Both the position numbers and the translations under genes were made by a program. From Escherichia coli (GTDB taxonomy: Bacteria > Pseudomonadota > Gammaproteobacteria > Enterobacterales > Enterobacteriaceae), in NCBI RefSeq assembly GCF_003334765.1, contig NZ_QOWT01000033.1: a stretch of DNA of 44,004 nucleotides; one strand, written 5' to 3'. The notes below the pieces were generated by a model. The model did not search any database, was not told the DNA's origin, and saw only the letters and a list, made by a program, of their open reading frames with translations. This document shows positions 42,408-44,004 of the stretch, one piece after another. How positions within the stretch are numbered: position 1 is the first letter of the stretch; the number at the start of each line of letters is the position of its first letter.

Positions 42408-42411
42408 TTTT

Positions 42412-42459
42412 CTCTGCAAAACCTCTGCAAAACTCTTCTGCAAAACTCTTCTGCAAAAC
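42412..42459 (+). repeat. four tandem direct repeats of TCTGCAAAAC (11-13 bp period)
   Basis: Copies at about 42413, 42424, 42437 and 42450, between the ompW stop and the integrase stop. Confidence 0.85.
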
Positions 42460-42483
42460 TGGTCATCAAATGACCAGTTTTTT
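42458..42483 (+). terminator. rho-independent terminator hairpin after ompW, overlapping the integrase stop codon
   Basis: ACTGGTCAT-CAA-ATGACCAGT stem-loop followed by a T run; the integrase TGA stop (42466-42468) sits in the hairpin and its last codons are encoded by the stem and T run. Confidence 0.75.
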
Positions 42484-43596
42484 CCACTCCTTACCGCGTA
42501 CATCGTTGTAAATATCGGTCATTTTTTGATTCGAATGGCCTAGCAAAATTTTGGTATCAACCCCCTGCTCTCTGAACAATCGCTCTGATAAAGATCTCTG
42601 CTCATGGAAAGAGGGTGGGGTGCCATTAGCACGCCAGTTGTAATCCACAGAATCCCGGGCTTTTTTAAATGCAACGGTTAATGTTGCTGGCTTAACCATC
42701 CCGCCGCGCTTAGCTGTCCCTTTCGCGTGATGGTGGTGCAATAGCCACGGACTAAGAACGCAATCGCGGCAGGATGACACTACATCATCCAGGGTGAGAT
42801 TTAATTTATCGCAACGCAGAGCCAGAGGGATGGCAATCCGGGTTCCTGTTTTTTGCTGTTCGACATGAAGATAACCATCCCGGATATCCGAAAATTGCAT
42901 TTTGCAAATATCTGAAAGGCGCTGGCCTGTCATCAGTGCCAGCAGCATACCGCGCTGTAAAAAGTAACCATTCTTTTCCGCTGCGTTATAAATCATCATC
43001 CACTCATCAAAAGTCAGTCGCTGTCTTGATATCCGCACCTGCGGTTTTTTTGCCGATTCTGCAGGGTTAAAGCCTGGCGGGACATCGCCCGTTTGCTGAG
43101 CTTCCCGGAAAACATCGATCAGTACTTTCCTGAAAATTTGTCCCATTCTGTTATGTCCTCTGGCCTTGTACTCTTCCAGTACTGATACCACATCTTTTAC
43201 GGTTATGGCATCTAACGGTCTGGTGCCAAAACGTTCATCAAATACCCTGAGAGGGGCCGCTTTCTGTTTCAGCGTGTTGAGTTTGATCTCGCCGTTTTCA
43301 TATCTTTCCTGTTGAATTTTTCTGTAATTATTCAGAAAAATGGTAACGGTTGATGAACCGCCGGTATCACTAATAATTTTCTCCTGCAGACTGAGCATTT
43401 GTTCCATTTGCTGCCGGGCAAGACGGCTGTTCGCTTCTGCTGCAATAGTTTCTGCCAGTTTCTGGTCAATACTGCCGAGACCGTGATTTTTGCCTGTTAT
43501 GGGATGCCTGTAACGCCAGTAAACTTTGTTATTTCTTTTGTCAAAATACGGAGATAATCCCGGAACATCGGTTTTATATTTTCGCGGGCGCGCCAT
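42466..43596 (-). CDS. int: lambda-family tyrosine integrase
   Basis: 376-aa ORF whose N-terminus (MARPRKYKTDVPGLSPYF...YRHPITGKNHGLGS) and C-terminus (FHEQRSLSERLFREQ, LLGHS, MTDIYNDVRGKEWKKLVI) parallel phage lambda Int as I recall it. Confidence 0.9.
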   Translation of the reverse strand: MARPRKYKTDVPGLSPYFDKRNNKVYWRYRHPITGKNHGLGSIDQKLAETIAAEANSRLARQQMEQMLSLQEKIISDTGGSSTVTIFLNNYRKIQQERYENGEIKLNTLKQKAAPLRVFDERFGTRPLDAITVKDVVSVLEEYKARGHNRMGQIFRKVLIDVFREAQQTGDVPPGFNPAESAKKPQVRISRQRLTFDEWMMIYNAAEKNGYFLQRGMLLALMTGQRLSDICKMQFSDIRDGYLHVEQQKTGTRIAIPLALRCDKLNLTLDDVVSSCRDCVLSPWLLHHHHAKGTAKRGGMVKPATLTVAFKKARDSVDYNWRANGTPPSFHEQRSLSERLFREQGVDTKILLGHSNQKMTDIYNDVRGKEWKKLVI

Positions 43597-43822
43597 CTTC
43601 CAGTATCCTCTTCAAAGCAGGGTGATCTGTGGCGATCACCTCCGGCTTGTTTACCATTCCGACAAAGCGAGCTTGCGGATCCACTCGCCAGCGTCTTCCA
43701 ACTTTTTTGGGGAGAGGAAATATCATTCCGGCTTTAGCGTATTTACTTAACGTACTCGGAGTAGGGACCGGTTCACTGAATTCCTCTTTTGCCCACTCAG
43801 TGAGCAGAATAAGTCTTGCCAT
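43574..43822 (-). CDS. xis: excisionase (Xis-like)
   Basis: 82-aa ORF immediately upstream of int, overlapping it by 23 nt as in lambda xis-int; loose resemblance to lambda Xis (TEWAK..., IFPLPKKVGRRW). Confidence 0.7.
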   Translation of the reverse strand: MARLILLTEWAKEEFSEPVPTPSTLSKYAKAGMIFPLPKKVGRRWRVDPQARFVGMVNKPEVIATDHPALKRILEDGAPAKI

Positions 43823-43886
43823 GAGCGTCGTTCGCTAATCATGGTCGCCGCCACTATAGCTGGTGGGCAACGACCGGGGTTGAACA

Positions 43887-44003
43887 TTAAAAATCAGCCT
43901 GATTTGGGATCAGTTTTTGCCAGATAGCTGAAACGTATTTTGCCTGGTAACGGGCGTCATCAAGTGCATTATGGCGCTCACCTTCGAATGGAATAGCCGT
44001 TCT
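43887..44003 (-). CDS. 3' end of a DnaQ/DEDDh-like exonuclease gene (partial, runs off the window)
   Basis: Minus-strand frame open to the window edge ending ...ERHNALDDARYQAKYVSAIWQKLIPNQADF*; the H-x4-D motif resembles the Exo III motif of DEDDh 3'-5' exonucleases. Confidence 0.4.
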   Translation of the reverse strand, partial: RTAIPFEGERHNALDDARYQAKYVSAIWQKLIPNQADF

Positions 44004-44004
44004 G

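Follow-up and report, generated by a model that had tools for sequence, protein, structure and literature searches.

A prophage junction inside the ompW coding sequence of Escherichia coli: attL and the int-xis-exo end of a probable PPompW-type lambdoid prophage

The element e14 and phage 21 are found at the 3'-end of the icd gene, and their attP carries a diverged copy of the 3'-end of the target gene. The gene stays intact upon integration at icd, and the displaced host 3'-end is left as a fragment at the other junction. In ompW a comparable site is used by the PPompW prophages of E. coli, which were described by Nakamura et al. (2021, PLoS Pathog, PMC8112680; GenBank LC567818-LC567841). These prophages integrate within ompW, the phage gives a substitute 3'-end to the gene and the att duplication is 121 bp long (PMC8112680). 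A survey of 767 complete genomes found PPompW prophages in 44% of them, spread over 92 serotypes, and the attP of the O145:H28 PPompW was shown by PCR of the excised circles (PMC8112680).

Here we analysed a stretch of 44,004 nucleotides of E. coli DNA, the window from now on, whose right-hand end very probably consists of the attL and the int-xis-exo early-left end of a lambdoid prophage of the PPompW type. The DNA from 42423 to 44004 showed 99.2% identity with eleven deposited records of PPompW or Stx2a-in-PPompW (LC567822 and ten others). Prophages are assigned to PPompW when their integrase gene exceeds 90% identity to that of the O145:H28 PPompW across more than 90% of the length (PMC8112680), and the segment that is 99.2% identical includes all of int. 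Furthermore, the attL of the window maps to the annotated 121-bp repeat, and the corresponding attR is present in the strains ML35 and H3. Over 41700-44004 the window departs from E. coli ML35 in a single 13-bp repeat unit, and the closest genomes (H3, ML35, VR50 and others) were 99.9% identical over 25 kb.

Regarding its frequency, the attL junction was present in 1725 of the 5426 complete E. coli genomes, that is, about a third of them. The version with four repeat units and the flanks of the window had no match in complete genomes, where the best matches reached 99.9%. A first description made without database searches, which we call the sequence-only reading, had recognised here the int-xis end of a lambda-like prophage, and this is borne out by the gene matches, by the 99.2% identity to PPompW and by the 41-50 kb element carried by the nearest relatives. 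The same description regarded the element as the most likely place for undescribed content. This expectation has to be dropped, because the PPompW family is already named, sequenced and surveyed, and the finding is real but ordinary. Actually, few lambdoid integration sites of E. coli are as heavily used or as well documented, and the finding has little value as a discovery. The window covers only around 1.7 kb of the element, and nothing in this visible part points to new biology.

The junction was located by a four-way alignment of the K-12 attB (empty site), the uninterrupted attP of phage 204576 (CP025907), the attL of the window and the attR of ML35 (far junction). The four sites share an identical block of 28 bps, CAGTGTGGTACATGGATATCGATACCAC (42274-42301 in the window), which contains the inverted repeat GTGGTA-N12-TACCAC and corresponds to ompW codons ~174-183; the identity between the window and K-12 extends to 42304. 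To the left of this core or crossover region, attL and attB carry the host ompW, whereas attP and attR carry the AT-rich P arm of the phage. To the right of the core the pairs change, the phage allele of ompW being in attL and attP and the host (K-12) allele in attB and attR. This split at the 28-bp block indicates that the crossover lies inside ompW, around 105-135 bps before its stop codon, and that the DNA from about 42302 on is of phage origin. A crossover further right, at the identity block by the ompW stop, could be ruled out, because attL has the phage loop and attR has the host loop.

Under this alignment, and also by comparison with the K-12 OmpW, the ompW coding sequence of the window (41754-42407, + strand; NCBIfam OmpW equivalog, 1e-118) is a chimera, with a host part up to ~42301 and the last ~35 codons (42302-42407) supplied by the phage. 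The phage DNA at attL also includes a terminator hairpin and four repeats. The chimeric gene is an intact ORF of 217 aa, so the substitute 3'-end that attP brings keeps the reading frame open, and an ompW 3'-end is seen in the uninterrupted attP of the phage record CP025907. The native 3' allele, of the attB/attR type, reads CAGTGTGG...GCCAATTATAAGCTGGGCGG...TTTTTAATTCCGCAC and is followed by yciE. The imperfect duplication at attL spans 42274-42409, as judged from the repeat_region annotation of LC567822, the text of PMC8112680 and the alignment. It is 136 bp long here and 121 bp in the published elements because of a 15-nt in-frame insertion in the part that encodes a loop of OmpW.

These results correct the boundary given by the sequence-only reading, which placed the element immediately downstream of ompW. 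The insertion lies within the coding sequence and the foreign DNA starts at 42274-42304 and not at 42408, therefore the earlier boundary was off by ~105-135 bps. Likewise, the segment 42400-42490, which had been proposed as the core with which to search for the other junction, belongs to the phage-only P' arm (repeats and terminator), and the sequence duplicated at attR is 42274-42409. The K-12 layout had been given correctly, and in that strain ompW is followed by yciE, yciF and yciG; the suggested comparison with an empty ompW site was part of the four-way alignment. In annotation processes, 42274-42304, within ompW, is where the prophage boundary belongs. Strains of this kind have a chimeric ompW allele, part host and part phage, and this matters wherever OmpW is used as a typing marker or vaccine antigen or is considered as a receptor. 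The core at attL would still be available to further PPompW-type integrations.

The arrangement would be explained as follows. The attP of the phage would carry a 28-bp core identical to ompW codons ~174-183 and, 3' of this core, a phage copy of the remaining ompW codons, the terminator hairpin and the tandem TCTGCAAAAC repeats abutting the end of int. A lambda-like integrase would recombine attP with the attB inside ompW. The 3'-end of the host ompW and its terminator would thus be displaced by ~41-50 kb to attR, adjoining yciE, and ompW would be resealed at attL by the end that the phage encodes.

The repeats lie between the stop codons of ompW and int. They are four tandem copies of TCTGCAAAAC with a period of 13 bps (42413-42459, + strand; detected by TRF and by over-representation), and this 10-mer has four exact copies in the whole window, where 0.11 are expected by chance. 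Three copies are found in ML35, in the O145:H28 phages and in phage 204576, and four in an O157:H7 strain and in S19-141, which indicates that the extra unit of the window (42424-42436, the sole difference from ML35 over those 2.3 kb) is to be read as natural copy-number variation. The P arm holds a further copy at -133, left of the core, and the position of this motif is conserved, as CCTGCAAAAC, in a second and clearly divergent P arm. Because the integrase has an arm-binding domain and the layout is like that of the annotated Int sites of lambda, the most likely reading is that these repeats, four in P' and one at -133 in P, are candidate arm-type Int sites. They could also be host 3'-UTR sequence captured by the phage, instead of or besides Int sites, as in several other genera ompW is followed by these repeats and by a hairpin that is nearly identical, while the next 1.5 kb have no integrase (for instance in Citrobacter sp. 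FP75, C. portucalensis, Kluyvera georgiana and Raoultella ornithinolytica); the arm-site interpretation is therefore less than certain. In favour of arm-type sites are the over-representation of the repeat, the copy at -133 kept in two divergent P arms and the lambda-like geometry.

Next to the repeats there is a bidirectional terminator-like hairpin supplied by the phage (42456-42483), with an 11-bp stem AAACUGGUCAU-CAA-AUGACCAGUUU followed by a U run. Its folding gave z = -5.4 on the + strand and z = -3.8 on the - strand. The hairpin overlaps the stop codon of int and stands in place of the native ompW terminator, which in K-12 is GACCCCG..CGGGGTC and which we found at attR. Probably it terminates both convergent genes, ompW and int. 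A scan with consensus terminators missed the hairpin between ompW and int, whereas folding showed it clearly.

Among the ompW loci of other genera, five (L024, from Citrobacter sp. FP75; L028; L048; L054, from Kluyvera georgiana; and L088, from Raoultella ornithinolytica) have the TCTGCAAAAC repeats and a CTGGTCAT..ATGACCAG hairpin within the 60-80 bps that follow the ompW stop. In L024, 41 nt match the window with 100% identity, and the downstream genes at these loci are non-phage, namely an ArsR-like gene and unknown ORFs. More generally, many other genera, including Klebsiella, Enterobacter, Kluyvera and Citrobacter, have after ompW a hairpin of the type AAACTGGYC...GRCCAGTTT. The idea that the repeats 3' of ompW always mark an adjacent integrase in other genera was ruled out, as only 2 of the 80 loci had one within 1.5 kb. 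The phage patch may have been taken, along with the 3' UTR, from a host of this kind; otherwise the repeats and hairpins of these genera would be scars of related elements. Separately, four IMG/VR contigs (L007, L008, L010 and L012) have an uninterrupted, attP-like series of P arm, core, ompW patch and P' inside longer contigs of viral or prophage origin, and their P arm is unlike that of the ML35 type; this arrangement is probably the 'attB-in-PP_3' of PMC8112680.

On the opposite strand 3' of ompW, the sequence-only reading had placed a lambda-type integrase, an overlapping excisionase and the 3'-end of an exonuclease gene, and the Pfam, PHROG and ML35 matches confirmed all three at those places. 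The first gene, int (42466-43596, - strand), encodes 376 aa with the domains Arm-DNA-bind_1 (PF09003, residues 2-71, E 1.6e-21), Phage_int_M (PF22022, residues 120-170, E 1.1e-4) and the catalytic Phage_integrase (PF00589, E 1.9e-16). It matches PHROG integrase families (1.4e-77) and, along its whole length, shares 36% identity with lambda Int (PDB 5j0n/1z1b, E 9e-56). In the alignment, R226, K249, H331, R334, H354 and Y363 correspond to the lambda residues R212, K235, H308, R311, H333 and Y342, so all six catalytic residues (R-K-H-R-H-Y) are kept. By its sequence this ORF is thus a predicted lambda-type, heterobivalent tyrosine integrase, with arm-binding, core-binding and catalytic domains, and the similarity to tyrosine recombinases on which the earlier description had made its interpretation depend is clear in Pfam, PHROG and PDB. 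NCBIfam gave nothing beyond a sub-threshold XerA match for Int and no match for Xis.

The second gene, xis (43574-43822, - strand), overlaps the start of int by 23 bps and encodes an excisionase of 82 aa, which matches phrog_629 (3.7e-35) in PHROG and Exc (PF07825, 1.4e-7) in Pfam; the PDB sequence search gave no match for Xis. The third (43887-44004, - strand) is cut by the window edge, leaving 38 codons and the stop of an exonuclease gene. This 3'-end is identical to that of the ML35 gene C1I23_RS11015 (823 aa), which matches the phrog_2082 exonuclease from end to end (1-823), and it is 96-98% identical to exoVIII genes of several lambdoid phages. A non-phage integrative element, such as a phage satellite, a PICI or a genomic island, might use a lambda-like int/xis at ompW, as there are other genera in which the ompW 3'-end and the same repeats and hairpin are followed by non-phage genes (the ArsR-like gene of Citrobacter sp. 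FP75 in L024 and the unknown ORFs of Kluyvera georgiana in L054). We consider this extremely unlikely for the window, where the next gene is a lambdoid exonuclease and the segment is identical to that of full lambdoid prophages, besides being 99.2% identical to the PPompW records.

In the nearest relatives, ML35 and H3, the element is a lambdoid prophage of 41-50 kb with replication, Q, lysis, terminase, head and tail genes; its far end is an ompW' fragment, after which come yciE, yciF, yciG and trpA. The element is not a lone remnant in these two strains. Their cargo is ordinary for lambdoid prophages and includes dicB, ydfD, ydaS/ydaT, hokD, queH, lom, genes for a DNA methyltransferase, a SAM methyltransferase and a SASA-family esterase, three tRNAs and, in ML35, a kinase and phosphatase pair. 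Both prophages show decay: the protease and capsid genes are truncated in ML35, and the tape-measure and J region is lost in H3. We infer that the copy in the genome of the window is full-sized, and it may well be defective because structural genes are pseudogenised in both ML35 and H3.

That decay, together with the fact that the element beyond 44004 falls outside the window, would also fit a short int-xis(-exo) remnant, in which the rest of the prophage was deleted, so that the chromosome resumes with yciE shortly past the window edge. This is very unlikely, as int, xis and the exonuclease 3'-end are intact and identical to those of genomes with elements of 41-50 kb, and no short-remnant arrangement was seen among the top matches. 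The early-left end of a PPompW-type prophage is thus the reading that we keep.

The comparison with these strains gave some further observations. Downstream of Q, the ML35 prophage has a pair of genes for a Ser/Thr protein kinase and a PP2C phosphatase (L001, 18249-19753), whereas the H3 prophage differs in its Q and holds a full DNA methyltransferase there, so this is a variable moron position. At the equivalent of window ~41425-41514 (- strand), between yciC and ompW, RefSeq annotates in ML35 and H3 a 90-nt pseudogene fragment of a 'YkgJ family cysteine cluster protein'. Finally, the window has at 16293-16555 (- strand) one tRNA-Tyr and one RtT unit of the tyrT-tyrV array, where the near-identical H3 has two tRNA-Tyr and four RtT units. 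This region is ~650 bps shorter in the window, which is either a real collapse of the tandem array or an assembly artefact.

The end of OmpW supplied by the phage changes a surface loop of the protein. The OmpW of the window equals the K-12 OmpW (PDB 2mhl/2f1t) through residue 184, then diverges with an insertion of 5 residues, and rejoins it at the unchanged VRLDPWVFMFSAGYRF. The loop between beta7 and beta8 (L4; 42305-42355, + strand) is replaced in this way, with KYKSDGRKLAKGSYSDN instead of the NYKLGGAQQHDS of K-12, and phages of the O145/O157 type have a third version, KYKSGVTTVKDS. In an AlphaFold model (43 enterobacterial OmpW sequences, pLDDT 81.8) the changed residues fall on the last beta-hairpin, in its outer part and its tip, residues 189-195 being at the tip; from the standard topology of 8-stranded barrels, we take this part to be the extracellular loop 4. 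The last beta-strand shows 10 codon differences from K-12 across the three phage alleles, all of them synonymous (the O157 allele was compared by eye), therefore the patch has been kept coding-competent.

The window-type loop KYKSDGRKLAKGSYSDN was present in 162 genomes. It was joined to the native downstream sequence of ompW in none of the 5426 genomes, where the best full-length match (88.9%) was the native allele, and no scarred E. coli site, with the phage loop and the native downstream sequence, was found among them. Therefore, this loop is strictly linked to the prophage in E. coli. A pattern scan of IMG/VR gave 8 loci, all with the O145-type loop.

The 3'-end of ompW borne by the phage might represent lysogenic conversion and not a neutral patch, and in that case the new L4 loop could alter the recognition by phages, bacteriocins or antibodies that target OmpW. 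The strict purifying selection on the adjacent strand and the strict linkage between allele and prophage fit with conversion. Nevertheless, we regard it as unlikely, given that across Enterobacteriaceae OmpW varies most in L4, that E. albertii, Escherichia sp. E1V33 and Citrobacter amalonaticus/sedlakii have a related long loop, KYKSNGAVLPAGRYSDN, as their native one, and that in some Citrobacter the sequence by the repeats encodes the host's own type of loop. The contact residues of colicin S4 on OmpW have been reported as D116/H117/E120 (mature numbering; DHxxE). Evasion of this colicin by the loop swap is improbable, as these contacts map to FNDHGKE (precursor ~135-141), which is host-derived and equal to K-12 here, and this is a further point against conversion. 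Among E. coli phages, the use of OmpW has been reported for RB68 alone, which was described in 2026.

Long last loops similar to KYKSNGAVLPAGRYSDN were seen in OmpW proteins of 216-217 aa in E. albertii (L016) and Escherichia sp. E1V33 (L019), and also in the Citrobacter amalonaticus/sedlakii group (L017, L018, L020 and L021) and Pluralibacter (L034). In L020 and L021 the long-loop ompW has a K-12-like terminator downstream. As the loop carried by the phage in the window is akin to this class, its sequence suggests that the patch derived from a long-loop host and, with it, a history of host jumps.

Compared with lambda Int, the integrase shows 36% identity from one end to the other, and its three domains and catalytic residues are those of lambda Int. 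The overlap between xis and int measures 23 bps in both, and int adjoins the P' arm and hence lies at attL. Candidate arm sites are found at both sides of the core, at distances near those of the annotated Int binding sites of lambda. However, the core of the window is inside a protein-coding gene, whereas the attB of lambda is intergenic, between gal and bio; around 100 bps of substitute coding sequence separate the core from the P' repeats; and Xis shows hardly any similarity to its lambda counterpart (E 0.003 over 22 residues). With respect to e14 and phage 21 at icd, the gene and the specificity of the integrase are different, and the ompW segment includes a surface-exposed loop altered in sequence and length. 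PPompW of O145:H28 and other strains has the same site in ompW and the same att duplication, an int-xis-exo segment with 99.2% identity and a lambda-like genome organisation, the latter as seen in ML35 and H3. The window differs from it in the long-loop ompW allele, whose 15-nt insertion makes the duplication 136 bp long instead of 121 bp, and in having four TCTGCAAAAC repeats, whereas the O145:H28 phages have three. Furthermore, the nearest commensal-type relatives of the window are without the T3SS effector loci and the paa gene, while the O145:H28 members of PPompW have both.
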